Under the pieces are notes generated by a model. It ran no database searches. It saw only the letters and a program-made list of their open reading frames with translations, and had not been told where the DNA came from. 34,434 nucleotides of DNA from an uncultured Candidatus Peribacteria bacterium. Lineage in GTDB: Bacteria > Patescibacteriota > Gracilibacteria > Peribacterales > Peribacteraceae. Where the stretch lies: positions 1,969-36,402 of the forward strand of contig CAZBSN010000002.1 in assembly GCA_964494435.1 (NCBI GenBank), in the 5' to 3' direction. The position numbers and the translations under genes were made by a program. Shown here in pieces: positions 7,082-34,318 of this stretch. Numbering within the stretch: the stretch's first letter is position 1; every line of letters begins with the position of its first letter.

Positions 7082-7090
7082 CAGGACTGG

Positions 7091-10011: not shown

Positions 10012-10419
10012 GGTGTGCGTTCTCCCTCTCCCCAGGGGAGAGGGTTGGGGTGAGGGGTATGACAAATATTCCCGAATTTTTTCGAAGACAACATCCGGTT
10101 TTTTGAGAACTTCTGTATGGCCGATACGAAGTACGCGAAAGCCCCATGAATGTAAGTACTCATCTCGCTTTTTGTCGTATTGTTCTGCGCCGGGCTGCCA
10201 ATGGGAATCCCCATCAACTTCAATAACGAGATTAATTGCTACGCAGAGGAAATCGACAATGTACGGCCCGACCGGGACCTGTCGCCGAAATTTACAACCG
10301 TGATATTTACGTGACCGAATAAGCTTCCACACAACTCGCTCCGCCTGCGTCTGGAGACGACGAAGACTCCTTGCTTGTCCTGTTTTGTGCCGCCGAATCG
10401 GGTCTAATTGCGAAAACAT
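10000..10419 (-). CDS. DUF559 (Vsr/restriction-endonuclease-like) domain protein
   Basis: ARSLRRLQTQAERVVWKLIRSRKYHGCKFRRQVPVGPYIVDFLC...IEVDGDSH is the characteristic DUF559 pattern. I place the start at the ATG at 10419; the ORF could extend to a GTG at 10452. The last roughly 20 codons are encoded by the flanking repeat and overlap the lysS stop by 12 nt. Confidence 0.75.
   Translation of the reverse strand: MFSQLDPIRRHKTGQARSLRRLQTQAERVVWKLIRSRKYHGCKFRRQVPVGPYIVDFLCVAINLVIEVDGDSHWQPGAEQYDKKRDEYLHSWGFRVLRIGHTEVLKKPDVVFEKIREYLSYPSPQPSPLGRGRTHTLEA
10021..10057. repeat. GC-rich palindromic repeat (CCCTCTCCCC-A-GGGGAGAGGG followed by GGGGTGAGGGG), copy A
   Basis: A perfect 10-bp inverted repeat is visible. 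It is closely similar to the reverse complement of 10445-10479. Confidence 0.8.
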
Positions 10420-10444
10420 GCTCCCACCATATGGATGAATCGGA

Positions 10445-10479
10445 CCCCTCACCCTTTCCCTCTCCCTCAGGGAGAGGGG
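10445..10479. repeat. GC-rich palindromic repeat, copy B, inverted relative to copy A
   Basis: The sequence is CCCCTCACCC-TTT-CCCTCTCCC-TCA-GGGAGAGGGG. Its reverse complement aligns to 10021-10057 at about 30 of 36 positions (hand alignment). Confidence 0.8.
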
Positions 10480-10572: not shown

Positions 10573-13500
10573 CTATTTCTTCTTCCCAAATCTTCTTCTC
10601 ACCCACGCATACCCCGCAGCTCCACCCGCGGCCATGAGTGCGATGGCGGCCGGGCCGGTGTCACCGACTGGAGCGTGTGTCGGCGGACGAGGACGGACGA
10701 TGTCCCCGAAAGGAGGTGCAACGGTTCCACCCACTCCCGTCGTCTGCGAACCAGGCTGGAATGGCACTTCGACCAAGGAATCCGGCGGCAATACGATGCC
10801 GCCTGCTTCGGCCTGACAGAGACTGTTGCAACCATCGCCCGGCATTGTGTTGCCGTCGTCACATGCTTCAAGCGGCCGGTCGACGACGCTGTCGCCACAA
10901 CGTCCGCGCGAGCAGTCAGGGCGGCATGCGGCATTCGGCTCAGCGGAATTGCGCGCGCCAAGGTCACACGCTTCGCCCGGCTCCAATGTACCGTTGCCGC
11001 AGAAGTTCGGCGTATAGGCGAGTTCTTCCGGCGTTTCACACTTGCCGCTCACGCAGGCGCTCGCACCAGGACACTGATCGTCCGTGACGCAGCGGCTGCA
11101 CACGGCATTCACGCAGGATCCCGTGTCGCACTGGAAGTCGTACGCGCAGCGCTGGTTCGGACCAAGGAGACAAGCATTGCTGCAGACATCGCTGTCGTTC
11201 AAGTTGCCGTCATCGCACTGCTCTCCTGCGTCCACGCGGCCGTTGCCGCAGTCCGGCGGGGTCGTTTCACACTGGGCCGCGATACAGCGGTGGTTGCTCG
11301 GACATTCGCTGTCGACATTACAGGGTTGGCACGTACCGCTGCGGCAAATGCGGCTCTCACATTGTGCGATCGACGTGCATTCGACGTCCGGATTGCGGCG
11401 GCAGTTGTTGCTGCAGTCGTCCGTGTCGACGCGGTTGTTGTCGTCGCATGATTCACCGCGTTCCACGACGCCGTTGCCGCAGACGGGCGGCGTGACTGTT
11501 CCCGTGTTGCCACCGAACGTACCGCCAATGTTGCCGGTTGTTCCGATCATGCCGTTGTTACCGGTAGTGCCGGTTGTTCCGAAATTCCCGTTGCAATTCG
11601 GGATGTCGCTGCAAAGCCCGCTGATGCACTGCTGACAGTTCAAACAGTCGAGGTTATTGAAGCACGCGCGAGTGGATGACTGGCTCTGTGACGATCGGCT
11701 GGAATCAGGGCGAATGGAGCTGTTTGCGAAGGCGGATGTTCTCTGTGACGACACAAGTGAGGAACGGAGCGACGACGCTGCGCCGCCAGAGGACTTATTC
11801 GATGATGCAAGAGTGCCGCCGGAAGACTTGCCCGACGAAACCGACGATCCCTTGCTGGATGAAACAGAGGAAGCGCGCGATGAGGAAATAGACGATACGC
11901 GCGAAGATGAGACAGAGGATGCACGGCTGGAAGAAGCGGACGAGATGCGGCTCGATGAGAGAGAAGCCGAGCGGCCAGACGAGAACGAAGCGCTACGCAC
12001 AGACGAAGAGGAGGTTTCACGGACACATTGCGCCGAACATCCATCGCCGTTGCGGGCATTACCATCGTCACACTCTTCCAAGCGAGCAATGCCGGGCACG
12101 CTCGACACGGACGCGTTGCTGCGCGCCGAAGACGCGGGTGGCGCCGGACAGTCCTTCGGACAGTTCGTGCTGTTCTCACTCGCATCACAGATCTTATTGC
12201 CACACGTCGTGACGCCTCCACAGTCGACCGCACAAGTAGTGGGTGTCTCGGTTCCGTTGCAGAGCGTATCGCCGCACGCAGGTGGGATAGGCGGAGAAGA
12301 GCCTTCTGCCCCGGATTGGTTTGCAATCGACACGTTCACGACGCCGTCACCACACTGCGCATTGCGGCAGAGCGTGGTGCACGCATCGCGATCCGTCGTG
12401 TTGCCGTCGTCGCATTGTTCCCCAGATTGCACGATCCTGTCGCCGCAGCGCGGACCAGAGGACCTCTGTGATGTTCCGCCGCCCGCCGTGGTGCCTCCTG
12501 GTCCACCATTGCCGCCAGCCGCACCGGCGCCATCTGCACCGCCTCCCGCGCCTGCCGCCTGTCCACCTCCTCCTCCACCTTGCTGCTGTTGCTGACCTGC
12601 AACTGGAGGAGCACCACCTGCCAGGTTCTGAGGCGGTAAGCAGCGATACATGCCACCGAGTCTTCTGCCAGAAATGCGAATTTGCCCGGCGTCCGTCATG
12701 GCTCCAAGCGTCACTGGCATCGCACATTCGAATCCCGAACAACAATCGGGGAGATGGCAAAACGCAGTAGGCTCACATATGCCCGTTGCGAGGTGTGTTT
12801 CGCATCGCAATTGAAGCCTCGCTCCCGAATCCAACACGAACATCACACCGCCGATCTCACGCGATATACCTCTGTTCGTTTCAACCACCGTCCCCGGCAC
12901 GGTTGTTTCCTTCGGTCTATCTACAATTGGCAACGCACTTGTAACTTCGGCTTCAAAGGCTGGATCGATTTTCTCTCCAGCATTGAGATCAAAATAATTC
13001 CAGTTGGAACAGACCTTGCATCCTTTCTCCGGATCGCAGGGCGTTGCCCATGTCGTATCCGTGAAACATCCTCCGCCACCCGCAGCTGGCATAAAACAAT
13101 CCTCATTCTTGCTGCATTCCGCGCGTATATTCGTAGCCTCGTCTTTCTTCCCTTGAAGCGTAAGATTTTTCTTCGGTCCATAGAGTTCGCAGAGTTCGCC
13201 TGATTCCTTCTGGCGTTTAAATCCAGGAGGTGCGCCGGGTATGACATCCGCAAGGAGATTTGCGGCAAGGAGATTCGCCTCTGGAAATAATGCGTCAATA
13301 ATGTCACCAATAGGAGCATCTGGAGCGGCGGGATCACCTGCTCCTGCACCTCCAGCTGCAGGGGGATCACCTGCTCCTGCACCTCCAGCTGCAGGGGGAT
13401 CAGGCGCTCCCCCTCCACCCAGAGCTGGAAAAGCAGGCCCAAATCCACCGGGCCCGGCTGCTTCAACATATTTATCCGTCACATCGACAAACAAATTCGA

Positions 13501-15810
13501 GATATTGGACGTCGGCGTGCACTTTTGATTGGGTCCCGCCAATTTCTTCGCTTCGACATCGGCTTCTTCCCCCGCCGGACACTTCGGTGCTCTCGGTATC
13601 ATTTGCATCTGACCATTTGCACCCACGACGAAATTTGCCGGCTGACCGTCCGGCCCCATTCCTTCAACTATCACCACCCCGGCGCCACCCGCTCCCGCTC
13701 CAGGCTGAGGCACTCCGGGCAATCCTAAAGCCGGCTGCGCCGCTAAAAGATTCGCCTCAGTGCGAAAGGGCTGCCCCGCCTCCGTGGGCAGGGCTGCTGA
13801 TGGCGTGCCGCTATCGGCACCCTGAACATTCTCCGGTTCGCCTGGAACAATCGTTTCAGCCGTCAAACCCGGCGTGTCCTTACCTTGCATGAAGAGACAG
13901 GAATTGAGCGTGATTTTCGGCAGCGCACTAGTACCTTCTCCTTCAAATACCATACAACCGCGTGGATCGCTGCAATTCGGTCCCGCCTGCCGGACCCATT
14001 GATCACAACCTGGGAGCGGATACTCACAGTCGAAGCGTGTGCGGTCTCCCGTAGGAAGCGCCGAACACTTGGCGATTCGGCACTCACTGGCACTCACTTT
14101 GATGCAATTGCTCTCCGCCATTTTCTGCGCCCATGCAGCAGAGAATTTCGTGTAGTACAAATCTGTAGGCGCCTCGGCGCCCGCAATGCCCAGCGGGATA
14201 TTCACTAACGTTCCAGGAGGGAGACCTTCGCGACGACCAATGCTCACTGCAAAGGGATCCTCAGTATTAGGATCGCCGTTGTCGCACGCTTCACCGGTTT
14301 CAACGACGCCGTTCCCGCATCCGACACACTTCTCCTTACATTCGTCTGCTGTGCGATACAGCGTTCCCGGCGTGCTGTCGGCGGCTGCGACTGCATTCTG
14401 ACTTTCACTGTAGGACGGCTGTGGTGATGTTCCGCTATTGACGCACTGGTGCGCCGGCATCGCCGTTCCGCAGCTGACGATCTTTCCTGCGACGGATCCT
14501 CCAACAGTGCAGCAGAACGACTTCGGTGCTTGAAGACCGACGATGATGGCCGCCTTTTGGGCGCACTTATTGTCACATTTGGGATCTTTCGTGGCCGCTG
14601 GATTTCCACAAGAACCATCGGTGTTGTTTGGCGTGGTTGATTCTTCACACTTGCCACTCTTGCACTCGTAACACTTCTTTTCTTCACATTTGCCGGCGCA
14701 TTTTGAATCCGTGGTGGCATTTGGATTTCCACAGGAACCATCGGTGTTGTTTGGCGTGGTTGATTCTTCACACTTCCCATCCTTACATTCGTAACATTTT
14801 TTTGGGGCCGCACATTGTCCACCACATTTCGAATCAGTGCTGGCACCGCCATCACATTGTCCTTTGACAGGATCGTACGTCGCGCCTGTAGAGACTTCAC
14901 ATTTACCATCCTTACATTCGTAACACTTGGGCATCTCTCCGCACTTGTTATCGCAGGAGCTGTTCGTTGAGGCGTTGGGATTACCGCATGAACCATCAGT
15001 GTTATTGGGAGTCGTGGATTTCACGCACGTGCTTCCTTGGCACTCGTAACACACTTTGGGCTCAGAACACTTACCAGCGCATGTGGGATCTTTCGTAGCC
15101 GCTGGATTTCCACATGAGCCATCTGTGTTGTTCGGTGTCGTGGATGCAACACAGGTGCTGCCTTGGCATTCGTAGCAAGTGTTGTTCGCTGCACGGATGA
15201 TGGATTCAGCAACACCGACACACGAGGTGGGGGTGGGGCTGGCAGTACTTTCACTTGGTGATCCAGGTGCTGATTGACTTGCATAGATGTCTCCACAGGC
15301 AATGGGCGTGCCGCATTTTTTCAGTTCGGCCTCGCACTGGGTGCTTGTCGGATCGGAGCCACATGCAGCCTGCACGTTTGTGTCGGATGTTTCGTACGCT
15401 GTAAATGCGTCTTTCGACGCCTGACTGCCCGGATTCTGTTTTTCTATCGCAAGATAGGCTTTAAAGAGTCTTTCCGATTCAATGAGACAACAATAAACTT
15501 TTGACTGAGCAGTGGCAGGAGTGCCGTCCTCTGATGACGGAAGCTTGGTGTAATTACACTTACACACAGATTTTGTAACATCATTTCCTTCTGGATCTTT
15601 AATAACGATATCTGTGCAATCAGCAGCGACAATGCCTCCGGGAGTTGTTGGAGCTGTCGAGGGAGAATCCGCTTGTGACGGAGCTTGCGGCGTCTCTTGC
15701 GCCAACAAAAAGCTTTGAAGCTGCGTTGCGATCGTCGGGGCCACTACAACAACCGCCACTGCGAGAGCAATGAAGGAGAGGGCGCGAACGATCGTTGAAC
15801 GTTGCGGCAT
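10573..15810 (-). CDS. Giant cysteine-rich surface protein G1 (about 1745 aa) with a sortase-type C-terminal signal (VGDTG + hydrophobic + RRRFGKKK)
   Basis: I place the start at the ATG at 15808-15810, giving MPQRSTIVRALSFIALAVAVVVVAP as signal/anchor. The upstream GTG extension to 15957 was rejected. Contents:
- five tandem CYEC...TTPNNTDGSCGNP modules;
- about 8 CGNGvv..GE.CDDGN..D.C repeats;
- Gly-, Ser- and Pro/Ala-rich linkers;
- a C-terminal sorting-signal architecture. Confidence 0.85.
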   Translation of the reverse strand: MPQRSTIVRALSFIALAVAVVVVAPTIATQLQSFLLAQETPQAPSQADSPSTAPTTPGGIVAADCTDIVIKDPEGNDVTKSVCKCNYTKLPSSEDGTPATAQSKVYCCLIESERLFKAYLAIEKQNPGSQASKDAFTAYETSDTNVQAACGSDPTSTQCEAELKKCGTPIACGDIYASQSAPGSPSESTASPTPTSCVGVAESIIRAANNTCYECQGSTCVASTTPNNTDGSCGNPAATKDPTCAGKCSEPKVCYECQGSTCVKSTTPNNTDGSCGNPNASTNSSCDNKCGEMPKCYECKDGKCEVSTGATYDPVKGQCDGGASTDSKCGGQCAAPKKCYECKDGKCEESTTPNNTDGSCGNPNATTDSKCAGKCEEKKCYECKSGKCEESTTPNNTDGSCGNPAATKDPKCDNKCAQKAAIIVGLQAPKSFCCTVGGSVAGKIVSCGTAMPAHQCVNSGTSPQPSYSESQNAVAAADSTPGTLYRTADECKEKCVGCGNGVVETGEACDNGDPNTEDPFAVSIGRREGLPPGTLVNIPLGIAGAEAPTDLYYTKFSAAWAQKMAESNCIKVSASECRIAKCSALPTGDRTRFDCEYPLPGCDQWVRQAGPNCSDPRGCMVFEGEGTSALPKITLNSCLFMQGKDTPGLTAETIVPGEPENVQGADSGTPSAALPTEAGQPFRTEANLLAAQPALGLPGVPQPGAGAGGAGVVIVEGMGPDGQPANFVVGANGQMQMIPRAPKCPAGEEADVEAKKLAGPNQKCTPTSNISNLFVDVTDKYVEAAGPGGFGPAFPALGGGGAPDPPAAGGAGAGDPPAAGGAGAGDPAAPDAPIGDIIDALFPEANLLAANLLADVIPGAPPGFKRQKESGELCELYGPKKNLTLQGKKDEATNIRAECSKNEDCFMPAAGGGGCFTDTTWATPCDPEKGCKVCSNWNYFDLNAGEKIDPAFEAEVTSALPIVDRPKETTVPGTVVETNRGISREIGGVMFVLDSGARLQLRCETHLATGICEPTAFCHLPDCCSGFECAMPVTLGAMTDAGQIRISGRRLGGMYRCLPPQNLAGGAPPVAGQQQQQGGGGGGQAAGAGGGADGAGAAGGNGGPGGTTAGGGTSQRSSGPRCGDRIVQSGEQCDDGNTTDRDACTTLCRNAQCGDGVVNVSIANQSGAEGSSPPIPPACGDTLCNGTETPTTCAVDCGGVTTCGNKICDASENSTNCPKDCPAPPASSARSNASVSSVPGIARLEECDDGNARNGDGCSAQCVRETSSSSVRSASFSSGRSASLSSSRISSASSSRASSVSSSRVSSISSSRASSVSSSKGSSVSSGKSSGGTLASSNKSSGGAASSLRSSLVSSQRTSAFANSSIRPDSSRSSQSQSSTRACFNNLDCLNCQQCISGLCSDIPNCNGNFGTTGTTGNNGMIGTTGNIGGTFGGNTGTVTPPVCGNGVVERGESCDDNNRVDTDDCSNNCRRNPDVECTSIAQCESRICRSGTCQPCNVDSECPSNHRCIAAQCETTPPDCGNGRVDAGEQCDDGNLNDSDVCSNACLLGPNQRCAYDFQCDTGSCVNAVCSRCVTDDQCPGASACVSGKCETPEELAYTPNFCGNGTLEPGEACDLGARNSAEPNAACRPDCSRGRCGDSVVDRPLEACDDGNTMPGDGCNSLCQAEAGGIVLPPDSLVEVPFQPGSQTTGVGGTVAPPFGDIVRPRPPTHAPVGDTGPAAIALMAAGGAAGYAWVRRRFGKKK
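13331..13402 (-). repeat. Perfect 33-bp tandem repeat (2.2 copies) encoding DPPAAGGAGAG inside G1
   Basis: ggatcacctgctcctgcacctccagctgcaggg occurs at 13331-13363 and 13364-13396, followed by a partial third copy. Confidence 0.9.
14563..15177 (-). repeat. Five tandem modules of about 41 aa (about 123 bp), C-Y-E-C-x-x-G-x-C-x-x-S-T-T-P-N-N-T-D-G-S-C-G-N-P-x(7)-C-x(3)-C, inside G1
   Basis: In ORF numbering, the units start at residues 261, 303, 345, 388 and 429. The repeat is visible at both protein and DNA level. Confidence 0.85.
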
Positions 15811-15978
15811 TGTTGGCTCGCAGACTATCAGAACGGCTCCGAACACACAGAGGAGAGGTCTTGCAATGCCATATAACTGTGTCGCTCTATATGTTGATGA
15901 ATGTAACGCTGCGTCTGGGGCTCCACTGTCAAGAAGTTCCCGTGGTGTCGACTGCACGCTTTGCGTACGCTGGCCGCC

Positions 15979-16731
15979 ATGGATACACCACAGCAGAACT
16001 CAAGCGGACGCACGATCCTTCTCGTCGTCATCGTCCTCGCCATCCTCGGCGCAGGCGGATACTTCCTCTATCAGTGGTTGCAGAATCCGGCGGCAACGAC
16101 CGGCGAGCTCGACGAAACTGTCGAAGCACCGGAGATCACCTCGCTCTCACAAGTTGCGGCTTACACTGGCGGAAAACCGCTCCCCTCTCCTTCCGACAAA
16201 TTGTTCCCGCCGTTCAACGAACACGATCACATTCGCGGCGAAGCGGCGGCTGATTTATCGATCGTGGAGTACAGCAACTTCGGCAACCCATACGCAGCGT
16301 TACTCCACACTGAATTGCAGAAAATCGTGAGCGAAAATCCGGGCACGGTGAACTGGGTCTACCGTCATTATTCGGTCGGACCGCAGGACCTTCTTCCATC
16401 CAAAGCTGCAGAGTGCGTCTACTTTGGGGAAGGCCATCCTGGTTTCTGGACGTACTTCGATTCGACGTTCTCCATCCGCCAGCCGACGGCTGACCTGCTT
16501 GCAACAGACGCAATGGCAGCGGGCGCAGATCGAACTCAGTACACGAAGTGCATGGATGAGAACTGGACGCAGGATCGTGCAATCACCGACGCGCAGAACG
16601 CGAGCATCGATCTTGGCATAGACGTCGCTCCAACGTACGTCTTCTTCCGCAAGAGCGACGCGCAAGTGCGCATCGTCGAAGGACTCAACACTGCGGAATA
16701 TATGCGGGCGGTGGTGGCTGATATGCAGTAA
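15979..16731 (+). CDS. Membrane-anchored DsbA/BdbD-like thioredoxin-fold protein lacking the CxxC active site (GNPY in its place)
   Basis: The TM/signal anchor is RTILLVVIVLAILGAGGYFLY. IVEYSNFGNPYAALLH aligns with the IVEFxDxxCPxCxxxH of DsbA-like proteins, and the cis-Pro loop is retained (VAPTYVFF). I place the start at the ATG at 15979; the ORF-track start at 15961 is TTG. Confidence 0.75.
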   Translation: MDTPQQNSSGRTILLVVIVLAILGAGGYFLYQWLQNPAATTGELDETVEAPEITSLSQVAAYTGGKPLPSPSDKLFPPFNEHDHIRGEAAADLSIVEYSNFGNPYAALLHTELQKIVSENPGTVNWVYRHYSVGPQDLLPSKAAECVYFGEGHPGFWTYFDSTFSIRQPTADLLATDAMAAGADRTQYTKCMDENWTQDRAITDAQNASIDLGIDVAPTYVFFRKSDAQVRIVEGLNTAEYMRAVVADMQ

Positions 16732-16744
16732 GTCATTCACTGAG

Positions 16745-16812
16745 GCGAGTGCCCCTCTCCCGGTTGCGACCGGCCTCTCCCTTTGGGAGAGGCGAATGCG
16801 CACTCGCTTTTT
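16745..16812 (+). terminator. Composite hairpin (GCGAGTGC...GCACTCGC enclosing two inner hairpins) followed by TTTTT; candidate terminator of the plus-strand DsbA-like gene
   Basis: The outer 8-bp stem pairs 16745-16752 with 16800-16807. The inner hairpins are CCGGT-TGCG-ACCGG and CCTCTCCC-TTT-GGGAGAGG. The T-run is at 16808-16812. Confidence 0.45.
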
Positions 16813-16816
16813 AGTT

Positions 16817-16877
16817 CCCTCTCCCCTTGGGAGAGGGTGGCTCCGCAGAGCCAGGAGAGGGGCCGTCCCGCAGGACG
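16817..16877. repeat. Cluster of three further GC-rich hairpins, including another CCCTCTCCCC-TT-GGGAGAGGG copy
   Basis: The three are 16817-16837 (CCCTCTCCCCTTGGGAGAGGG), 16839-16852 (GGCTC-CGCA-GAGCC) and 16862-16877 (CCGTCC-CGCA-GGACGG). They lie in the convergent gap between 16731 and 16886. Confidence 0.75.
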
Positions 16878-16885
16878 GGCTCATG

Positions 16886-22300: not shown

Positions 22301-22302
22301 TG

Positions 22303-25300
22303 TTAGGAAGGAGAGGAGGTCTTGCGGAAACGTCGGCGAATCCATGCCACGCCTGCAGCGCCACCCGCGGCTAAGCCAACCACAAGCGCGGGGCCGGTGT
22401 CCGGAAGATCGTCGCCCGAACCGTGGACAGTATCTTCTGTCGGATGTGCGGGTGTGAATGGCAGTTCCACAATGATGGTTGCGGCAACGTCAGTAAAGCC
22501 TTCATTCCCGACGGTGCAGAGCGGCGTGCACCCGTCGTTGCCGAGTGCGTTATTGTCGTCACACGCCTCCCCTGCTTCCGGCAATCCGTTGCCGCACACA
22601 TTCGGCAGGAGCGACATTTGCGCATCCGTGAGACATTGTCCGAGGGCGCACCGCAATCCCGACGGACAGGCGCTGTTGTCGGCACATGGCGCGCACACCC
22701 CGTTTGTGCAGACGTTGCTCTGACATTGAGAAGGATGCGTACATGCGACATTGAATCCGAAGCGACATGACATCGTGCAACCGTCTTGATCGTCACGATT
22801 CATGTCATCGCAGGCCTCGCCGGGTTCGACGACGCCGTTGCCGCATGCATTGCCTTCGAGAAGACATCGCCCCTCGCTGCAACGGAGACCCGATCCACAC
22901 TGTGACGCTCCGCCGCACGGTTGGCAGCTGCCGCCGTCACAGAGCTTGGAATCGCACTCTGCTCCGGCCGCGCACGCGTGGCCGAGCCCAAACGCGCATC
23001 CAACCGTACATCCATCGTTGTCCTCTCCATTGCCGTCATCGCAGACTTCGCCGGACTCAATTGTTCCGTTACCGCATAAAGGAAGTGCGCCTCGGCAGTG
23101 ACCGTCAACACAGAACCCGTTTGGACACTGCAAACTCGACGTGCATCGGTTGCATGCGCCCCCTTCACAGAGCAAGCCATCGGGACAGGCATGCGCTGCA
23201 TCACAACGGAGCATGCAGGTCGGCGAACATGCATCACCCGCAATGGTGTTGCCGTCATCACATTGTTCTTCGGCATCAATGCGTCCGTCACCGCAGAGCC
23301 CCGCCGGGCAGACGCCGTGCACAGGACAGGAGCGACCGTCTGGGCAGAGTGTGCCGATGAGACAGCGTATACGGCAGGCATTCGTGCACGTGTCCGTGTC
23401 GCTGTTGTTTCTATCGTCACATGACTCGCCTGCGTCGACGACGCCGTTGCCGCAGAGATCGATGCACACACCGTTGCTTTCATCACAGACGCCGGACGAA
23501 CACTGTGCATCGTTGGCGCAGCGAATTTCACATCGATTCGAACACGCATCATTGTTGGACAGATTATCGTCATCACATTGCTCTCCCGGATCCAATCGGC
23601 CATTGCCACACGGAGCCACACAGGTCATGGACGTGAAATCACATTCTCCAGAGGGGCAATCGCTGTGGGCCGAACAGGCCAGTTTGCAGTTATTACGACA
23701 TTCATCCGTATCGACGAGATCCCCATCATCGCACTGTTCGAGGTACGTATTCACCTGGCTATCACCGCAGTACGGCGCGCTGCATACACCGGTGGCTTCG
23801 TTGCAAATCCCAGACGTGCAATCGTCGTCGCTGTCACATCGGACTCGGCATGCGTTGTTGCACGCATCGCTGTCTATTTGATTGCCGTCATCGCATTGCT
23901 CACCAAGCGCACCACTCATCACGCCGTCACCACATGTACCTGCAGCTTGTGATACATGGCATGTGGCGTCACAGAGATCGTTGCCCGACGGGAGCCCGCT
24001 GTCGCATGCTTCGCCGGCGTCGATGACGCCGTTCCCGCACAGTTGAATCGGACAGGTGCCATTCACCAAGCATGTCTGTCCATCAGCGCAGATCTCTCCT
24101 TGCTCACATGTACGTGCACAGAACGTGACACGATCAATCGTTCCAGCTGGGCAACCTTCATCATCTTTCCCCACGAGCATTTCCATCGGTGGAAGCGTCG
24201 TGATGACTTGCGCGGTAAGCCCTGGATTCTCCAGCGAGAGAAGATACAGGTAACATCCGGGGTCGTCCTCATCCGAGAGTCCATCGCCGTCGTTGTCGAG
24301 CCCGTCGGCACACGCGGGACGAACGCACTGTGGTTTACAGAACATTTCTTTCATCTTATCGGGCAGCCATGAACGGTTATTCGGACCATCGTCACATTGC
24401 TCACCGAGGTCGACGAGATTATTGCCGCAGAGTGTCGGCGGACAAATGCCATTCGCAGGACAAAGCTGACCATCGGGGCAGAGCAAGCCGGGAGTGCACC
24501 GCGCTTCACACTCGTTGGAACATTGATCGACGTCTATCTCGTTTCCATCGTCACACGCTTCCCCGACGTTGACGACGCCGTTGCCACAGAGCAGAGGAAG
24601 GCATATGCCATTGAGTGGGCACACTTGGCCATCGGGACAAATCTGACCGGGAGTGCACGGACGGAAGCGGCAATTCTGCAAACAGGTGTCATTCGCCGTC
24701 GGATTGCCGTCATCGCACTGTTCGCCTGCATCAACTGTTCCGTTTCCGCAGAGATCGGGACAAATGCCGCTTGCCGGACACGCCTGGCCATCGGGACAGA
24801 GCTGACCTGGCGTGCAGTTTCGCTCACGACACGTGAGGGTGCATTGGTCGGTGTCGATGAGATTGCCATCGTCGCAATCCTCACCCGCATCGACGACGCC
24901 GTTGCCGCAGAGGACCGGGCAAATGCCGCTGGAGGGACACGCCTGACCGTCGGGACAGAGCTGGCCGGGAACACAGCGTTGTTCGCAGCGATTGGTACAC
25001 GCATCTGTATCGTCCGTGTTCGCGTCGTCGCACGCTTCACCGGGAATCACACACGGCATGATTGCAACGGACTCGCACGCGAGGCGGCCGTTCTGGGACA
25101 GAATGATGGTCAGTGCGGGACCGCCGTCCGGCCGCACGATGGAGAGATCGTCGATTCCATCGCGATTGAGATCGCCCGCCACCATGCTCCGACTGGCAAA
25201 CTGCTGGGAAGATCCGGCCTGAGCGCCCGGCGCCTTGCCGATCATTCCGACGCGCACGGGTGCGGAGAAGCCGCCGTCTGCATCCCCGGTTGTGCTGAAC

Positions 25301-26559
25301 ACTTCGTCATAGGTCGCGAATGCCAAATCCGGAAGGATGTCGTTGTTGAATTTTCCCACGACGAGTGCATGACCGCCCGCGTGTGATGCGGCATACATTG
25401 GTTCGGGCTGAACGGGAACGGTTCTGCGAAGGTACACCGTCATGAATTGCCCTTGTTCATCCACGATGACGTCCCTGACGCCATCACGATTCACGTCGGC
25501 GGATCGGAGCATCTGCACTCGCGGATCGGATCCGCTGAAATATGAGTTGTAATCCGAGAAACGACCATCGCCGCGATTGATAAATTCAGTGATGCGATAC
25601 CGATTGGGATCATCATCGGCATGGGCGCGATTGGGATCGATGCCGTTGGGACTCGACAGCACGACGTCAAGAAGCCCGTCGCCGCTGACATCCTGCAGCA
25701 ATTGACCGCGCGCGCCGTCGGTGAATCCGACCTCAGCGGGATCTTCGAATGACAATCCCGCCGCTCCGAAGAGCATGTAGGCCTTCGTTCCCTGCGCGAT
25801 GAGGAGATCCGCGTCACCATCGCCGTTCACGTCGCCGGGAAGAATGCGGTAGATGGATTGCGCGCCAAATGACTGCACGACGGGAGTGTCGAACGTGCCG
25901 TCTCCCTTTCCGCGGAGAACGGCAATGCCGCCGCCGATCGCCTGTGAAACGGCCAAATCTATTTTCCCGTCGAGATCGAAATCTCCCGCTGCAACCTCGC
26001 TTGCTTTTAGAATCGCAGTGGAAAGTATCGCCGTCCCAAACGAACCGTCGCCGGCATTGAGGAACACGCGAACCTTTCCTTCTTGGACGTCCGTCACGAT
26101 GATGTCGAGGAAACCGTCGACGTTGAGATCCGCCTGCACGTGAGCCGTGGGCATGGGGCCCAAGACGATGACGCGTGCATTCCCGCAAGCGACGCCGAGA
26201 GAGGGATCGTCGCAGGGGCGGGGAGGATCAACGACGCCGTTGCCGCACGCGAGCGCGCAGAGCCCGTTGTCGCAACGACCACTGGCGCATTGATCATCGC
26301 GTTCACACTGAAGAGCACAACTGCTCGTGCAGGAATCTCCCTGCGTTCCGTTTCCGGGACCGTGATCGCACTGTTCAAACGGCGGATCGAGGACGCCATT
26401 GCCGCAAAGATCGAGACACTGTTCAAGTCCTCCGGCCTGTGCGCAGAGCGCGAGTCGGGGGTCTGTATGAACCTCGCTCCCCTGCCACACACCCACCACA
26501 AGCAGCACTCCCAGGAAGAGGAAGAGAGGCGCGCCGCGAGTGAGGAAGGAAGGGCTCAT
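22303..26559 (-). CDS. Giant cysteine-rich surface protein G3 (1418 aa): FG-GAP/VCBS propeller plus about 20 Cys-rich repeats plus an LPDTG sortase signal
   Basis: The signal peptide is MSPSFLTRGAPLFLFLGVLLVVGVWQG. About 7 blades carry D-x-N/D-x-DG-x-x-D (DLNVDGFLDIIV, DFDLDGKIDLAV, DVNGDGDADLLI, DVNRDGVRDVIV, DLNRDGIDDLSI). Many CGNGvvD.GE.CDDGN repeats follow. The C-terminus is LPDTGPALVVGLAAGGAAGVAWIRRRFRK. I hand-counted about 134 Cys. Confidence 0.9.
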   Translation of the reverse strand: MSPSFLTRGAPLFLFLGVLLVVGVWQGSEVHTDPRLALCAQAGGLEQCLDLCGNGVLDPPFEQCDHGPGNGTQGDSCTSSCALQCERDDQCASGRCDNGLCALACGNGVVDPPRPCDDPSLGVACGNARVIVLGPMPTAHVQADLNVDGFLDIIVTDVQEGKVRVFLNAGDGSFGTAILSTAILKASEVAAGDFDLDGKIDLAVSQAIGGGIAVLRGKGDGTFDTPVVQSFGAQSIYRILPGDVNGDGDADLLIAQGTKAYMLFGAAGLSFEDPAEVGFTDGARGQLLQDVSGDGLLDVVLSSPNGIDPNRAHADDDPNRYRITEFINRGDGRFSDYNSYFSGSDPRVQMLRSADVNRDGVRDVIVDEQGQFMTVYLRRTVPVQPEPMYAASHAGGHALVVGKFNNDILPDLAFATYDEVFSTTGDADGGFSAPVRVGMIGKAPGAQAGSSQQFASRSMVAGDLNRDGIDDLSIVRPDGGPALTIILSQNGRLACESVAIMPCVIPGEACDDANTDDTDACTNRCEQRCVPGQLCPDGQACPSSGICPVLCGNGVVDAGEDCDDGNLIDTDQCTLTCRERNCTPGQLCPDGQACPASGICPDLCGNGTVDAGEQCDDGNPTANDTCLQNCRFRPCTPGQICPDGQVCPLNGICLPLLCGNGVVNVGEACDDGNEIDVDQCSNECEARCTPGLLCPDGQLCPANGICPPTLCGNNLVDLGEQCDDGPNNRSWLPDKMKEMFCKPQCVRPACADGLDNDGDGLSDEDDPGCYLYLLSLENPGLTAQVITTLPPMEMLVGKDDEGCPAGTIDRVTFCARTCEQGEICADGQTCLVNGTCPIQLCGNGVIDAGEACDSGLPSGNDLCDATCHVSQAAGTCGDGVMSGALGEQCDDGNQIDSDACNNACRVRCDSDDDCTSGICNEATGVCSAPYCGDSQVNTYLEQCDDGDLVDTDECRNNCKLACSAHSDCPSGECDFTSMTCVAPCGNGRLDPGEQCDDDNLSNNDACSNRCEIRCANDAQCSSGVCDESNGVCIDLCGNGVVDAGESCDDRNNSDTDTCTNACRIRCLIGTLCPDGRSCPVHGVCPAGLCGDGRIDAEEQCDDGNTIAGDACSPTCMLRCDAAHACPDGLLCEGGACNRCTSSLQCPNGFCVDGHCRGALPLCGNGTIESGEVCDDGNGEDNDGCTVGCAFGLGHACAAGAECDSKLCDGGSCQPCGGASQCGSGLRCSEGRCLLEGNACGNGVVEPGEACDDMNRDDQDGCTMSCRFGFNVACTHPSQCQSNVCTNGVCAPCADNSACPSGLRCALGQCLTDAQMSLLPNVCGNGLPEAGEACDDNNALGNDGCTPLCTVGNEGFTDVAATIIVELPFTPAHPTEDTVHGSGDDLPDTGPALVVGLAAGGAAGVAWIRRRFRKTSSPS
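24385..25060 (-). repeat. Four tandem super-modules of about 53 aa (about 159 bp), C-T-P-G-Q-L-C-P-D-G-Q-x-C-P-x-x-G-I-C-P-x-L-C-G-N-G-x-V-D-x-G-E-x-C-D-D-G-N, inside G3
   Basis: The protein repeats start CVPGQLCPDGQACPSSGICPVLCGNG, CTPGQLCPDGQACPASGICPDLCGNG, CTPGQICPDGQVCPLNGIC and CTPGLLCPDGQLCPANGIC. Long stretches of DNA identity are visible, for example around 24770-24800 compared with 24930-24960. Confidence 0.8.
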
Positions 26560-26606
26560 GAATCAGACGAACTCTACACCAGAGCAGCACAAACCGGGAT
26601 GCCGCA

Positions 26607-29600
26607 TCACGGCTCCACACACTGTTCGAGCTGACACAGGTGGCTGCATCCGTCGCCATCCAGGCGATTGCTGTCCTCACACTGCTCTCCGGCGTCGGTG
26701 AATCCATTTCCGCACAGCGGAACACCGCAGTTTTGTGGACAGGTGGGAGTCGTCCGTACGCGGCACTCGGATCCGTCCGCGCAGCAGCCGAAGCTGTACG
26801 GCTTGCCGTCAATCGGCGTTCCCCACGTCATGATGTTGCAATTGCAACTGCTGCCGTCTTGGCAACGATTCATCGAGGCGCCTTCATCGCATGTTTCGCC
26901 GCGCACCTCATCGATGATGCCGTCGCCGCACGGCATATATGGCTTGCACGACGTCGTGCACGTCGAGCCGGGACCGTTGCCATTTGCCGCTCCTGCATCA
27001 CAACGTTCGTCGTCGGGCGTGCCCATCACCAAGTCGAGGCCGGCATTGAACTGGAAGCCGTTTCCGCAGAACTCAACCATGCATGTTCCTCTGCCACAGA
27101 GAGACTCTTTCCCATTGTGCATGACAGAGCAGTAGAGGGTTGTGACGTCATTGACGTCTATAGTGGGCCCTGGACCGCAATCACATTGCTCGCCAACTCC
27201 TTGGATGCCATGGAGAGGATCGACAAAGCCGTCTCCGCACATTTTAAGGCTGCAGTCAGCGCGGCAGAAGCTTTCGAGCGTGCCGTTCACCGCCGTGCCA
27301 AGGTCGCATTCTTCACCTGTTTCACGTTCGCCGTTGCCGCAGAGTGGACACTCTCCGTCGACGGGACAACTGTTGCCATCCGAACACGCCTCACCCGGTG
27401 CACACTCTTCCTGACAGGTGTCGGAACACCCATCGTCGACCTTCATGTTGCCGTCGTCACACGCTTCGCCGGCATCGACCGTGCTGTTGCCGCAGAGGCT
27501 GCACGTTCCGGCTTCTTCGTCGCACGTTCCCCCGCCACAATCGCTGTCTTCGTCGCATTCATTCACGCATTGCGATGAACAACCATCGCCGTCTGCAGAA
27601 TTGCCGTCGTCACATTGTTCCGTGGCTGATGGTGGGGCATTCTGTCCGGCTGGAACGCAACGGAAGCAACGACCTCCTTCTCCATTGATTGTGCAAAGGC
27701 TGGCGCCCGCGCCGCCGAACCATTCCACCGTCTGACCTGCAGGACATGATTCTGCAGGATTGCTCGCATTACTGCCACACACCGGATATTCAGCGGGACA
27801 CGCGCCGTTACCCGGATCAGCAGAAGGACAGGTGGAAGTCGAGAGTGTGAAATTAACCACACACGGCGGACGATTGTCACGATTACCGCTGTTGTCGAAG
27901 TAGTTGTTCGCGCCCGGTTCATCATGGCTGACGTATGCTTTGGTCGCTCCCACAGGCGCATTCACGCCGCCAGTCGCGTCGAAGATTCTCACTTTCGACA
28001 CAGTGACATTCGCATCGTTTGTGAAGCTGATGGTGCCGAAGTCGCACGTATGCGGCTGTTCATCGTGCCCATTATGAATGCGCGTCGAGAACGTTCCGGT
28101 GACGGAGGTGACGCGAATCGTGTCTCCTTCCCGCACGTTCGTCATGAGCGACGGTGCTTGAGCGTCTCCATTGCGCACGTCTTCCCACGGACCTTGGCTT
28201 CCTTCGAAGGAAGCGCTTCCCGTTGTCTGATTTTGACAGGAATCTGATGGTGGCGGAGCGGGGCATGTCGGGAATGCACAGCTTGCTCCCCCGCGGCGGA
28301 GAAGCGGGCCTCCATCAGGACATTGCATGGTATCGGTTGAACAGGGAGGCTCGATTTCATCGATCTTCCCGTTACCACAGAGCGGCTGACACGCACCTGC
28401 TTCACATTCACCGCCGGGACAATCTGCATCTGCTTCGCAGTTCAGTTTACATTCGTTATTGCATCCGTCGTCGTCGACGCGGTTGCCGTCATCGCACTGT
28501 TCCCCATCCTGAGCACCACCTGGTACCGGAGGTGCACCTTCGGAATCATCATTCTCATCCGTGCAGGAGTCATCGTGCGCAATTTCACTGTCATCTTCAG
28601 GTGATGCACAACCAAGATCTCCTCCGGCAAAGTCTGTCTTGCCGTCGGCGTCGTTGTCCGCCTCGTCCTTACAAACGTACTCTGGATTTGCTGAATCGCG
28701 GCCGCATCTGAGCGTATCGAGACGGTCGTTTCCTGCGGCACATGCATTTTGGATGACGAAGTTATTGAGAGCAGGGCTCCAAGTGGCGAGCGTGTTGTTG
28801 TTGCAGCTCGTGTAGCTGCCGCGCGTCTTCGAGATCACTTCTGGGAACCCAACCATGTCGCAAATCTTCTGCGCAGTCACATCGTCGAAGTGCGCAGCCC
28901 CGGAATTATTGTCACCCGTCGGAATATGATTCACGCCGTCGGTGCCGTTGATGAGTGCGCGAATCTGCCATGGACTGGTGAAGACATACTCTTCTTGGAC
29001 TTCCTGTCCGCCCTCTGTGAGTGCATCCGTCGATCCATCACCATCGTTGTCGATGCCATCGCTGCACGCAGGGAGATCTTCCTCACGCATGTCACTCGCA
29101 GTCGAACATCCGGGATCGGCGATGTCGATGAGTGCATCACCGTCGTTATCGATTCCATCGCCACAGAGTGGATCTTCAGGCGGAACCGGCGGATCGACGA
29201 CTCCATCGCCGCAGATCGATCCGAAGCACGTCATACACACCGGAGCATCGGCTAATTTGCATTCCTGTCCTTTCGCCGCACACGCGGCGTCGCCGCCATT
29301 TGCACACTCATTGCCTTGGCATTGGCCACCGAGTGCCGCGACGCATTTCACACAGGGGAAGAGCGGGTCGGGCGCACACACCTTTCCTTGATCGGCGCAA
29401 TTTTTGATCGCCCCGGGAGCCTGGCACTCGTTGCCGAGACAGATACCGCCGACATTGCCTTTGCACTGATTGTTGCATGCGTCGTTGTCGATCTGATTGC
29501 CGTCATCACATGCTTCGCCGGCATTTGGGAGACCGTCACCGCACTTCCCCGGCTTTTTGCCATCTCCTCCTCCTGCAGGACATGCGCCAAACTCAGGCAG

Positions 29601-31001
29601 CGGTGCGCCCCCAGGGGCTGCAGCTGGAGGATCACCTGGTGCTCTGCCCGCTGTGCAATTGGCTCCTCCTGCTTGTGCTCCATTTGTATCTAAACAGACC
29701 GTTCCTGCGCCGAAGCCTTGGCAATCAAAATTGCTCTCGCAGCCGGACCCTACTGGCAAAAGCGGCGTGCATATTCCGTTTGGAGGTGGGCCAACATAAC
29801 GACACGCTAAGTTCGCATTGTTCCCACACCCCACTCCGGGCTGTGGCGGACACGGGGGATTGCCACAGGGTCTCGTACATCCCTCACCCGCCGCTTGCGC
29901 CAAGAGGTTTGCTTGCTGATTACCTGTTGATGCTTCACTCCCAGCTGAGCCGGACGTGTCCGATGTAAGGCCCACCTCTTCTGGATCTGGCATGACCGCA
30001 CACCCAATCGGAAGTTGGCAGGCCAACGTGCACCAACTGATCGATGGGTCGAACGGAGGATCGTCGCTGTTGGCGTCGCCGTTGTCGCACAACTCACCGG
30101 CATCGACAGTGCCATCACCGCATACTCCGACGCCGCATTCGCCGTCTTGTTCTTGCTCCTCTGAACAGTCGCTGCTGACCGATGACTCAGATGAAGATGC
30201 AGTGGAGCTTGAAATGCTGCTCGGTGGAGAGGTGCTGACGGAAGAGCCTCCCCCAGTTGGTTGGTCCGGTTGATCCGGCTCGTCGCTTGAAGAAGCAGAG
30301 GTGCTGACGGATGAAACGGACGCCGTACTCACCGAAGAATCTCCTCCTCCGCCTGTGTCGCCAGTGCCACCTGTTCCTCCTGTATCGCCGTCGGAGCATA
30401 TGCCGCCCGTTTTCGTCAGGGTAGAAAAGCAATCTCCGATGTTGTCACCATGAGGATCATCTTGGACTCGAACCTTTACACCGGCGGCATCGTCGGGAGC
30501 AATGGCACTGCTGACAGGTAATTCCTGAGGTGCTCCGATCGCTCCACCACCACTCGTGACGAACTGCAGAAAGACAGTCCCCGCACAGGTGGAAATGGCG
30601 TGTGCACAGTAACCGTCTTCGTATGGGTAGAGTTTGTCCTGGCATGCACACTGATCTTCCTGCTCGTGCGTCAGACCTTCTCCAGTTCCCTCACAGTTAA
30701 ATGTTTGACCCGCGTATATTTCACAGGAGCGATTGCACCACGGTCCGTCGGAAATCGTTGCGCTCACTTGCGTCCCAGGTTCTGCGTCAAAATCGACGGA
30801 CGGACCTTCACTCATGCTCGTGGTCGTTTCAATCGTGAGTTCTTTCTCACATGCGGAATCCGTATCCGAAAGATCGATCTGCGCCCGAAGCGGATTTTGT
30901 GTCCACGACCCCAACTGATCGATGCCAAAAGCAGCGCCCGCCATCGCCACCGCGAGGATCGCGGCGACTATGATACGCCCAGCGGTAACACGCACAGCCA
31001 T
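26607..31001 (-). CDS. Giant cysteine-rich secreted protein G4 (1464 aa), no C-terminal anchor
   Basis: The signal peptide is MAVRVTAGRIIVAAILAVAMAGAAFG. Contents:
- a Ser/Thr/Gly-rich linker;
- many CG(N/D)G..GE.CDDGN repeats;
- three acidic C.DG.DNDGDG motifs;
- two Cys-poor globular inserts.
The protein ends ...CSHLCQLEQCVEP with no sorting signal. Confidence 0.88.
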   Translation of the reverse strand: MAVRVTAGRIIVAAILAVAMAGAAFGIDQLGSWTQNPLRAQIDLSDTDSACEKELTIETTTSMSEGPSVDFDAEPGTQVSATISDGPWCNRSCEIYAGQTFNCEGTGEGLTHEQEDQCACQDKLYPYEDGYCAHAISTCAGTVFLQFVTSGGGAIGAPQELPVSSAIAPDDAAGVKVRVQDDPHGDNIGDCFSTLTKTGGICSDGDTGGTGGTGDTGGGGDSSVSTASVSSVSTSASSSDEPDQPDQPTGGGSSVSTSPPSSISSSTASSSESSVSSDCSEEQEQDGECGVGVCGDGTVDAGELCDNGDANSDDPPFDPSISWCTLACQLPIGCAVMPDPEEVGLTSDTSGSAGSEASTGNQQANLLAQAAGEGCTRPCGNPPCPPQPGVGCGNNANLACRYVGPPPNGICTPLLPVGSGCESNFDCQGFGAGTVCLDTNGAQAGGANCTAGRAPGDPPAAAPGGAPLPEFGACPAGGGDGKKPGKCGDGLPNAGEACDDGNQIDNDACNNQCKGNVGGICLGNECQAPGAIKNCADQGKVCAPDPLFPCVKCVAALGGQCQGNECANGGDAACAAKGQECKLADAPVCMTCFGSICGDGVVDPPVPPEDPLCGDGIDNDGDALIDIADPGCSTASDMREEDLPACSDGIDNDGDGSTDALTEGGQEVQEEYVFTSPWQIRALINGTDGVNHIPTGDNNSGAAHFDDVTAQKICDMVGFPEVISKTRGSYTSCNNNTLATWSPALNNFVIQNACAAGNDRLDTLRCGRDSANPEYVCKDEADNDADGKTDFAGGDLGCASPEDDSEIAHDDSCTDENDDSEGAPPVPGGAQDGEQCDDGNRVDDDGCNNECKLNCEADADCPGGECEAGACQPLCGNGKIDEIEPPCSTDTMQCPDGGPLLRRGGASCAFPTCPAPPPSDSCQNQTTGSASFEGSQGPWEDVRNGDAQAPSLMTNVREGDTIRVTSVTGTFSTRIHNGHDEQPHTCDFGTISFTNDANVTVSKVRIFDATGGVNAPVGATKAYVSHDEPGANNYFDNSGNRDNRPPCVVNFTLSTSTCPSADPGNGACPAEYPVCGSNASNPAESCPAGQTVEWFGGAGASLCTINGEGGRCFRCVPAGQNAPPSATEQCDDGNSADGDGCSSQCVNECDEDSDCGGGTCDEEAGTCSLCGNSTVDAGEACDDGNMKVDDGCSDTCQEECAPGEACSDGNSCPVDGECPLCGNGERETGEECDLGTAVNGTLESFCRADCSLKMCGDGFVDPLHGIQGVGEQCDCGPGPTIDVNDVTTLYCSVMHNGKESLCGRGTCMVEFCGNGFQFNAGLDLVMGTPDDERCDAGAANGNGPGSTCTTSCKPYMPCGDGIIDEVRGETCDEGASMNRCQDGSSCNCNIMTWGTPIDGKPYSFGCCADGSECRVRTTPTCPQNCGVPLCGNGFTDAGEQCEDSNRLDGDGCSHLCQLEQCVEP

Positions 31002-32479: not shown

Positions 32480-32531
32480 GGATGAAGTTGTTGGTGTTGA
32501 GCTTCTCATGGGACGTACTCTGAGGCCAGGC

Positions 32532-33368: not shown

Positions 33369-33386
33369 GGGGTATGTGTTATATAT

Positions 33387-33414
33387 ATTATACACTTATT
33401 TTCATTTTGAGCAA
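33387..33414 (-). promoter_or_regulatory. Candidate promoter (TTGCTC-16 nt-TATAAT) in an AT-rich island upstream of the orphan gene
   Basis: Read on the minus strand, TTGCTC is at 33414-33409 and TATAAT at 33392-33387. The ATG lies about 19 nt downstream of the -10 element. Confidence 0.4.
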
Positions 33415-33422
33415 TGTACCAC

Positions 33423-34200: not shown

Positions 34201-34318
34201 GTCCTGGCATCGGCCTACTCTCGCGAACCGTTCGGATCACTACCATTGGCGCTGAAGGGCTTAACTGCTGAGTTCGGTATGGGATCAGGTGTGACCCCTT
34301 CGCTCGAGACGCCAGGAC
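34201..34318 (-). rRNA. rrf: 5S ribosomal RNA
   Basis: The minus strand reads GTCCTGGCG...CACACCTGATCCCATACCGAACTCAGCAGTTAAGC...GCGCCAATGGTAGTG...GCGAGAGTAGG...GCCAGGAC. The terminal helix GTCCTGGC/GCCAGGAC and the universally conserved loop motifs are present. Length 118 nt. Confidence 0.9.

Follow-up and report, generated by a model that had tools for sequence, protein, structure and literature searches.

Clusters of genes for large Cys-rich extracellular proteins with similarity to FG-GAP and Myxococcus-repeat sequences have been described in Peribacteria (Anantharaman et al. 2016, PeerJ 4:e1607; PMC4736985). The complete Peribacter genomes contain twenty large proteins of elevated Cys content, including a 14-gene cluster (7.2% Cys, mean length 1655 amino acids (aa)), and Table S4 of that study gives lengths of 580-3860 aa and Cys contents of 2.4-11.4%. 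The Cys-rich Peribacter proteins carry signal peptides, are predicted to be extracellular, vary between strains and have been proposed to function in attachment, and most of them are labelled pappalysin-like. The gene table of Candidatus Peribacter riflensis also lists two srtA-type genes (ORFs 264 and 350, the latter beside a pappalysin-like protein), DsbB (272) and two DsbA-like genes (381 and 812), with no exosortase, archaeosortase or CAAX protease annotated and one rhomboid match below threshold (PMC4736985). Here, we analyze a 34,434-nucleotide (nt) stretch of DNA from an uncultured Candidatus Peribacteria bacterium (contig CAZBSN010000002.1, positions 1,969-36,402; hereafter the window), in which positions 10573-31001 are nearly filled by four giant minus-strand open reading frames (ORFs), G1-G4, that form a 20-kb cluster of Cys-rich genes.

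The window fits the published cluster type, with a Peribacteria host, four proteins of 1418-1804 aa, a Cys content of several percent, and FG-GAP and DUF4215/TIGR02232 matches above cut-offs. Because such Peribacteria clusters are already in the literature, the window is a new instance of a described type, and an earlier sequence-only reading of this DNA, which knew of no described system, was inaccurate at the level of the locus type. The likeness to the P. riflensis clusters covers the class, protein size (~600-2200 aa), Cys content (~5-11%), signal peptides, FG-GAP domains, weak Myxococcus-repeat and pappalysin similarity, the interpretation as attachment proteins, variation between strains, and a genome with DsbA-like, DsbB and sortase homologues. 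This likeness is drawn from the published description, and homology was seen with other Peribacteria loci. In contrast to the window analysis, the P. riflensis study is a genome-level inventory that does not describe the T-G-P tail, the gene order or the CxxC-less DsbA, and no close full-length homologue of the window giants came up in the database searches. The locus reveals no new kind of system; its distinctive part is a lineage-specific variant of the anchor signal.

The giants also share features with other surface proteins. LPXTG adhesins of Gram-positive bacteria (MSCRAMM- or pilin-like; TIGR01167/PF00746) likewise combine an N-terminal signal, a ligand-binding head, a repetitive stalk (DUF11 and isopeptide-type domains in G2), a Pro-rich wall-spanning stretch, and a motif followed by a hydrophobic segment and a basic tail, and G3 contains a literal LPDTG. 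However, the motif of the window family is x[G/P]xTGP, the tails score below the hidden Markov model (HMM) cut-offs, and the stalks would consist of disulfide-knotted Cys modules instead of Cys-poor Ig-like domains. Myxococcota proteins with DUF4215/TIGR02232 repeats and a MYXO-CTERM tail contain the same CGNG..D.GE.CDDGN..DGC...C unit (262 bits in G3) and are also large, secreted and composed of multiple repeats, with a dedicated sorting tail at the C terminus. They differ in phylum and envelope type, and the MYXO-CTERM motif contains Cys (P0098 and P0129; P-numbers denote database proteins) where the window tails have T-G-P. Moreover, the homology is restricted to the repeats and covers ~4-25% of the query for most matches, and up to ~60% for DUF4215-only giants matched to G3. 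Integrin-alpha-type FG-GAP/VCBS propeller proteins resemble the N-terminal region of G3, which hundreds of bacterial FG-GAP giants match at 25-35% identity, but those giants have 0-1% Cys, no DUF4215 arrays and no T-G-P tail.

The locus is probably a variable surface-protein island of Candidatus Peribacteria (Peregrinibacteria, in the candidate phyla radiation (CPR)) between the RluA/beta-CASP and lysyl-tRNA synthetase (LysRS) genes, with disulfide-locked exported giants, wall anchoring of G3 and G1 via the T-G-P tail, and a role in attachment. This reading is built on direct observation of the sequence features, domains, synteny, tail conservation and rapid divergence. Peribacteria and other CPR bacteria are uncultured, have genomes of ~1.2-1.4 Mb and are thought to live attached to other cells. 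The expenditure of 20 kb on four giants of this putatively disulfide-knotted surface type points to attachment molecules.

Architecture of the four giants

The four giant minus-strand ORFs noticed in the sequence-only reading were recovered by ORF calling (Table 1). The ORFs are genuine because, at the base composition of the window, a 1418-codon open frame would arise by chance with a probability of ~3e-24 per start, the proteins match HMMs, and their orthologues are conserved; an artefactual origin was ruled out on these grounds. For G1, the ATG start in Table 1 is also the start in the gene call of a public protein library, and P0297 is identical in sequence to G1. The Cys content is 9.45% in G3, 8.27% in G4, 7.4% in G2 and 7.1-7.2% in G1, compared with an average of 0.81% in the 19 remaining proteins of the window. 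The earlier hand count of about 134 Cys residues in G3 is exact. The claim of about 9% Cys holds in that all four proteins are Cys-rich, but the values range from 7 to 9.5% and are not uniform. A Kyte-Doolittle scan located a single hydrophobic segment at the N terminus of each giant, in agreement with the signal or anchor segments proposed earlier.

The Cys-rich unit previously likened to the Myxococcus repeat was identified by HMM in all four giants. TIGR02232 (cut-off 20.8) scored 262 bits with 11 units in G3, 95.7 bits with five units in G1, 76.3 bits with five units in G4 and 32.9 bits with one unit in G2, and PF13948 exceeded its cut-off in G1, G3 and G4. Across the HMM scans, 10-11 DUF4215/TIGR02232 units are found in G3, 4-5 in G1, 2-5 in G4 and one in G2. 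The FG-GAP and DUF11 modules of the sequence-only reading were likewise located by HMM, the former in G3 and the latter as three copies in G2.

Each giant combines these units differently. G3 consists of the signal segment, an FG-GAP propeller region (approximately residues 140-480; FG-GAP_3 match of 90 bits), the 10-11 DUF4215/TIGR02232 units and the C-terminal tail. G2 contains its DUF11 domains, an RrgB-type isopeptide domain (TIGR04226, 40.7 bits) and one DUF4215 unit; it does not qualify as an RrgB-type pilin, because the TIGR04226 match is not accompanied by a C-terminal sorting tail. In G4, DUF4215 units occur together with acidic CxDGxDNDxDG repeats and a Ser-rich linker, and the protein ends without a C-terminal anchor. 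The NF033662 model of acidic double-disulfide repeats scored 35 bits in G4 and 28.4 bits in G2, both below the cut-off of 41. G1 begins with a homologue-free head that includes five 41-aa CYEC repeats, and it further contains Gly-rich and Ser-rich linkers, 4-5 DUF4215 units and a Pro-rich wall-spanning stretch that precedes its tail. The five protein units of the CYEC repeat follow the pattern CYEC[KQ].G.C....TTPNNTDGSCGNP and are encoded by a 123-nt DNA repeat with four copies at the DNA level; they match no Pfam family.

A further Cys-rich unit of ~45 aa, the 'CC' module (CC-x4-9-C-x5-14-C-x8-32-C-x3-C), occurs in eight copies in G2, compared with 0.23 copies expected by shuffling, and also in stand-alone secreted proteins of a related locus (Table 1). 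An AlphaFold2 model of four G2 'CC' modules was mediocre (predicted local distance difference test score (pLDDT) of 66) and displays a beta-hairpin and a helix. A Foldseek search with this model returned Kunitz/BPTI-like matches alone, none of which was significant (best E = 0.29). Single-sequence AlphaFold2 prediction of G4 residues 652-1066 was unusable (pLDDT 33.7). PDB sequence searches with all four giants yielded 0 matches, and a relaxed Pfam scan of the unannotated parts of the giants found no further domain.

The giants could instead be secreted effectors or toxins, or structural S-layer or matrix components, directed against other cells or deployed around them. Predatory Myxococcota commonly have DUF4215 proteins, two of the four giants have no anchors, and large parts of the giants have no known domains. 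However, HMM and relaxed scans detected no enzymatic or toxin domain in the giants, and S-layer homology domains were found in none of the four. Moreover, FG-GAP, DUF11 and isopeptide stalk domains, Ser/Pro/Gly linkers and wall-anchor tails constitute the standard build of a surface adhesin. We consider such effector or matrix roles improbable and retain attachment as the preferred role.

Homologues were sought for G4, G3 and G2 among 5.8 billion proteins and for the G1 head among 1.84 billion representative proteins. The larger set yielded no full-length relative of G4, G3 or G2; the sole full-length match of G4 was G4 itself. The best match of G3 was P0056, with 34% identity over 54% of G3 and the same type of tail, and the other database matches were limited to DUF4215, FG-GAP or DUF11 parts. 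Non-self matches of G2 cover ~4% of the protein, corresponding to its DUF4215 unit, and one match in the DUF11 region extends over 26% with 29% identity. For the G1 head (residues 50-1160), the representative set yielded no homologue. By these searches, the giants appear to be almost without homologues beyond the shared repeats. Exact look-ups of G3 and G1 in an assembly index gave no match, and exact matches for G4 and the two DsbA-type genes of the window, DsbA1 and DsbA2, were observed on short Logan contigs of sample SRR6868922 alone. Horizontal transfer from Myxococcota was also considered and is not supported; repeat units alone match, and the base composition of the locus resembles that of its flanks.

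The C-terminal tail of G3 and G1

G3 ends in LPDTGPALVVGLAAGGAAGVAWIRRRF, which contains LPDTG, and G1 ends in VGDTGPAAIALMAAGGAAGYAWVRRRF, which contains VGDTG; a tail of this kind is missing from G4 and G2. A gap-free alignment was obtained for seventeen tails drawn from the window, the fetched loci and database matches. The Gly and Pro residues of the T-G-P motif are present in 17/17 tails and the Thr residue in 16/17. Upstream of the motif, position -2 is Gly in 8 and Pro in 5 of the 17 tails, and position -3 is variable. The motif is followed by [A/G]A and a 17-residue Ala/Gly-rich segment that also contains Val and Trp, with Gly at +11 and +15 and Trp at +18. This hydrophobic segment has a fixed length and the composition GAAAG[WY]AW, and every tail continues with RRR or RKK from +20. 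The alignment suggests a tail signature, x-[G/P]-x-T-G-P followed by 17 Ala/Gly-rich residues and RRR, that would represent a lineage variant specific to Peribacteria. All 15 tails found in loci belong to proteins with 4.4-13% Cys. The defined and testable anchor signature could serve to catalogue the proteins that the class displays.

T-G is the scissile pair of sortases. A hydrophobic segment and a positively charged extreme C terminus, as in LPXTG substrates, are observed in every tail. The sequence-only reading assigned a sortase sorting architecture to G3 and G1; its three-part organization (motif, hydrophobic stretch and basic end) stands, but the tails lie below the cut-offs of the LPXTG models. 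In its architecture, the tail would function like a sortase signal outside formal LPXTG membership.

Several observations weigh against sortase-anchored adhesins. TIGR01167 (cut-off 15.9) scored 10.6 bits for G3, gave no listed match for G1 and scored 12.9-14.4 bits for the relatives, and PF00746 reached 11.8 bits against a cut-off of 20. The PEP-CTERM models score about as well as the LPXTG ones (13.8-14.8 against a cut-off of 16). The Leu and Pro residues of LPXTG are not conserved across the tails, one orthologue has DSGP, and the hydrophobic segment varies unusually little, a trait more often associated with exosortase- or rhombosortase-type signals. A motif screen of the 34-kb window and ~57 fetched loci detected neither a sortase nor a DsbB or VKOR gene, and the TLxTC motif screen for sortase in all loci returned spurious matches alone. 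Moreover, most of G1, G2 and G4 has no recognizable domain in Pfam and PDB searches, and the adhesion function is proposed by domain analogy. Other tail models also scored below their cut-offs (MYXO-CTERM, 7.2-13.5 bits against 20; GVDTG_CTERM, 7.9 against 29).

The T-G-P tail might be no sortase substrate and be processed by another enzyme (exosortase-, rhombosortase- or myxosortase-like) or remain uncleaved as a plain C-terminal membrane anchor. This alternative would account for the sub-cut-off LPXTG scores, the similar scores of the PEP-CTERM and IPTL-CTERM models, the restriction of the invariant part to T-G-P with varying LP positions, and the fixed length and composition of the hydrophobic segment. 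The DUF4215 proteins of Myxococcota have a dedicated tail of another kind (MYXO-CTERM; P0098 and P0129). However, the conserved T-G pair is the one that sortases cut, G3 contains a perfect LPDTG, and the complete Peribacter genome has two annotated sortase homologues but no annotated exosortase, archaeosortase or CAAX protease, and its one rhomboid match is below threshold. The envelope of CPR cells is Gram-positive-like, which suits wall anchoring. We regard processing by another enzyme or simple membrane retention as rather unlikely and prefer anchoring by a sortase homologue.

For this preferred reading, we infer export, disulfide formation, cleavage, wall linkage and function as follows. 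All four giants would be exported by the Sec pathway through the N-terminal signal or signal-anchor segment indicated by hydropathy. Their Cys modules (DUF4215/TIGR02232, acidic double-disulfide, CYEC and 'CC') would be disulfide-locked outside the cell by the exported CPAC-containing DsbA1, which may be reoxidized by a DsbB encoded elsewhere (DsbB is seen at the class level alone). The tails of G3 and G1 would most likely be cut at T-G by a sortase homologue of the class and then joined to the cell wall. Long, rigid, disulfide-knotted stalks would display the FG-GAP head of G3 and the G1 head, which has no homologues. The tailless G4 and G2 proteins may be held by an uncleaved signal anchor or may be released or loosely associated. 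By domain analogy, attachment to a host cell or surface is the likely role, and the very fast change of the giants is probably under pressure from a partner or phage. The oxidative-folding-dependent adhesion apparatus of the sequence-only reading survives as a set of apparently exported, disulfide-dependent and adhesin-like proteins with a catalytic DsbA nearby and DsbB and sortases at the class level, but not in its pairing as a functional unit or its "dedicated" DsbA.

A more specific proposal is offered tentatively. The tail with T-G-P, GAAAG[W/Y]AW and RRR could possibly be an uncurated Peribacteria-specific signal that is reserved for Cys-rich giants and handled by unusually long (~400 aa) sortase homologues. 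Such a signal would provide dedicated display of Cys-rich cargo in an ultra-small episymbiont, to which unanchored partners would be recruited, for example the DUF11 giant found after an anchored DUF4215 giant here and in L003, one of the relatives' loci fetched for comparison (denoted by L-numbers).

Gene order and turnover of the island

A scan of a genome collection with the beta-CASP protein retrieved 44 loci at 61-86% identity, 43 of which are titled Candidatus Peribacteria, Peribacteraceae, Peribacterales or Peregrinibacteria and one just 'bacterium'. Cys-rich genes directly follow the beta-CASP gene in many of these loci. In the closest relatives, L004, L005, L007, L008 and L041, two separate Cys-rich genes that lack anchors, A and B, come next after the beta-CASP gene, and a G3-like gene comes after A and B in L004, L005 and L008. 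The G3 orthologue of L004 has the FG-GAP and DUF4215 architecture and is 46% identical over 713 aa. G4 is colinear with A and then B; its residues 1-102 resemble the N terminus of A, and its residues 646-850 and 1116-1447 resemble B. Because of this colinearity, G4 appears to be a fusion of A and B, or A and B a split of one gene. On the other side of the cluster, a metagenome scan with LysRS found two close relatives at 80% LysRS identity, L048 and L049, in which DsbA1 and LysRS are followed by an anchored G1 orthologue (63% and 42% identity, respectively).

The giants and their housekeeping neighbours contrast in divergence. LysRS is 80% identical where the G1 orthologues are 42-63% identical, and beta-CASP is 86% identical where the G3 orthologue is 46% identical. 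Because the neighbours are conserved at 80-86% and the giants at 42-63%, the giants appear to diverge rapidly. The relatives provide evidence that the island keeps to one place in the chromosome, between RluA/beta-CASP and LysRS, and undergoes very fast turnover. To the 2016 inventory, the analysis adds the anchor signature, this fixed-position and fast-turnover island, and definitions of the 'CC' and CYEC modules for otherwise unannotatable proteins.

The gene A products (Table 1) end in a conserved peptide, ..[FL]L.RLMA(x5-8)F.L[LF]P-COOH, of which the L006 protein keeps just the terminal F.LLP. The peptide could be a docking or sorting tag. G4, as the fused A+B form, does not carry it at its end.

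Within the window, the 47-nt G4-G3 and 2-nt G3-G2 gaps noted earlier are correct, and the latter becomes a 43-nt overlap if the longer G2 start is used. G2 and G1 are set apart by the opposite-strand DsbA2 gene and a stable hairpin block. The convergent spacer between DsbA2 and G2 (Table 1) is, by its predicted folding, probably a bidirectional transcription stop. A palindrome, CCTCTCCC-N3-4-GGGAGAGG, occurs in four copies in the window, where 0 are expected, and may be a repetitive extragenic palindrome (REP)-like element or a terminator. Terminator-like hairpins with U-runs are also located after G1 (z = -3.8), and the beta-CASP-G4 and G4-G3 gaps exhibit no unusual structure (z about 0). Scans for sigma-70 promoters found no more sites than in shuffled sequence. 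The layout suggests RluA-276aa-beta-CASP-G4-G3-G2, DsbA2 and G1 as the likely transcription units.

The sequence-only reading interpreted the cluster as two functional pairs, in each of which the sortase-anchored giant may display its unanchored neighbour (G3 for G4 and G1 for G2). The minus-strand gene order in the window is indeed unanchored, anchored, unanchored, anchored; G4 and G3, 47 nt apart, are probably co-transcribed; and in relatives, Cys-rich genes without anchors often come before an anchored one (unanchored-unanchored-anchored in L043 and unanchored-anchored in L046). However, G4 corresponds to two genes in five close relatives, three anchored genes stand in tandem in L015 and L016, and just one of the eleven Cys-rich genes of L003 is anchored. 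The DsbA2 gene and the strong hairpin block lie between G2 and G1, which do not form one operon. The tightest coupling in the window, G3-G2, runs across the proposed pairs and is the sole type of neighbour relation met twice; its second instance is in L003, where an unanchored DUF11 giant lies 6 nt downstream of an anchored DUF4215 giant. This arrangement echoes G3-G2; the L003 DUF11 giant and G2 have DUF11 units alone in common, which does not establish orthology. Display in two such pairs is very improbable. The alternation is absent in more distant relatives and appears to be a feature of this single window and no conserved design, because the gene orders of the relatives vary, G4 is represented by two genes, and the tightest coupling is that of G3 and G2.

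DsbA-type genes and neighbouring features

The two DsbA-type genes reported in the sequence-only reading, a CPAC-containing gene and a divergent CxxC-less paralog between G2 and G1, are both present (Table 1). DsbA1 scored 73.9 bits with Thioredoxin_4 and 31.8 bits with DSBA and has the thioredoxin fold, CxxC motif and signal-like N terminus of a DsbA. It is kept beside LysRS in L048, L049 and L052. DsbA2 is oriented divergently from G1 and convergently with G2. Without CxxC, it is predicted not to be a catalytic DsbA member, and its function as a non-catalytic holdase is a guess. That these genes are "dedicated" to the giants is not supported. In relatives, DsbA1 adjoins LysRS and the ribosomal operon both with giant genes nearby and without them (L052), and no relative of DsbA2 was detected in the JGI metagenomes or any fetched locus.

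Table 1. Coordinates of features in the window and, where a locus label is given, in related loci
Feature	Position	Strand	Description
G1	10573-15957	minus	1794 aa from GTG; 1745 aa from ATG at 15810 (10573-15810)
G2	16886-22345	minus	1819 aa; 1804 aa from ATG at 22300
G3	22303-26559	minus	1418 aa
G4	26607-31001	minus	1464 aa
DsbA1	7091-7834	minus	Exported DsbA-type oxidoreductase; CPAC at residues 88-91; signal-like N terminus
DsbA2	15979-16731	plus	Thioredoxin_4/DsbA-fold (46.1 bits); GNPY where CPAC aligns; N-terminal membrane segment
CYEC repeat region	14554-15180		In G1
'CC' modules	18300-20800		G2 residues 517-1547; unclassified in domain scans
Stand-alone 'CC' module proteins	L003 3809-4096, 20325-20561, 23313-23609		Secreted; 78-98 aa
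Convergent DsbA2/G2 spacer	16732-16885		Minimum free energy -87.7 kcal/mol; z = -5.8
Palindrome copies	10025-10043, 10459-10477, 16774-16792, 16818-16836		Last two in G2/DsbA2 spacer
Hairpins after G1	10553-10507		Terminator-like
RluA-type pseudouridine synthase, 276-aa protein, beta-CASP RNase	31079-34136	minus	Gaps of 52-77 nt, into G4
276-aa ORF	32532-33362		Between RluA and beta-CASP genes
Class II LysRS	7882-10011		709 aa
DUF559 gene	10000-10478 (region)		Endonuclease-like
5S rRNA	34202-34316	minus	84.8 bits
Gene A-type products	L004 4623-6470, L005 3250-6459, L006 2233-6072, L008 4583-7417, L041 2873-5935		Also P0003
Disintegrin protein	L003 210-3731		1173 aa

The giants of the window are flanked by the L3-L5 part of a ribosomal protein operon, the class II LysRS gene, the DUF559 gene, the beta-CASP RNase and pseudouridine synthase genes, and a 5S rRNA gene. 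DsbA1 is located directly upstream of rplC (6943-7834); the two genes share a strand and are 147 nt apart. The gene usually found immediately upstream of rplC is rpsJ (S10); the window contains no S10 gene, and DsbA1 occupies this position. At the other end, a T-run terminator-like hairpin (34180-34166) comes after the 5S rRNA gene, directly upstream of the RluA gene, which places the island just downstream of an rRNA operon end. The 276-aa ORF that follows the RluA gene has no Pfam match.

The LysRS protein has a C-terminal extension of ~225 aa that matches no Pfam family and is kept in L048-L052. The gene table of P. riflensis lists a class I LysRS (PMC4736985). The DUF559 endonuclease-like gene is positioned between 35-nt inverted repeats (10024-10058 and 10444-10478; 83% complementary). 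Because it is absent from the same LysRS-G1 spacer in L049, it looks like a small mobile insertion. The L003 contig (GCA_964534205.1), which also carries the best G3 homologue, encodes within its cluster a protein with 11% Cys and 10 Disintegrin (PF00200) domains.

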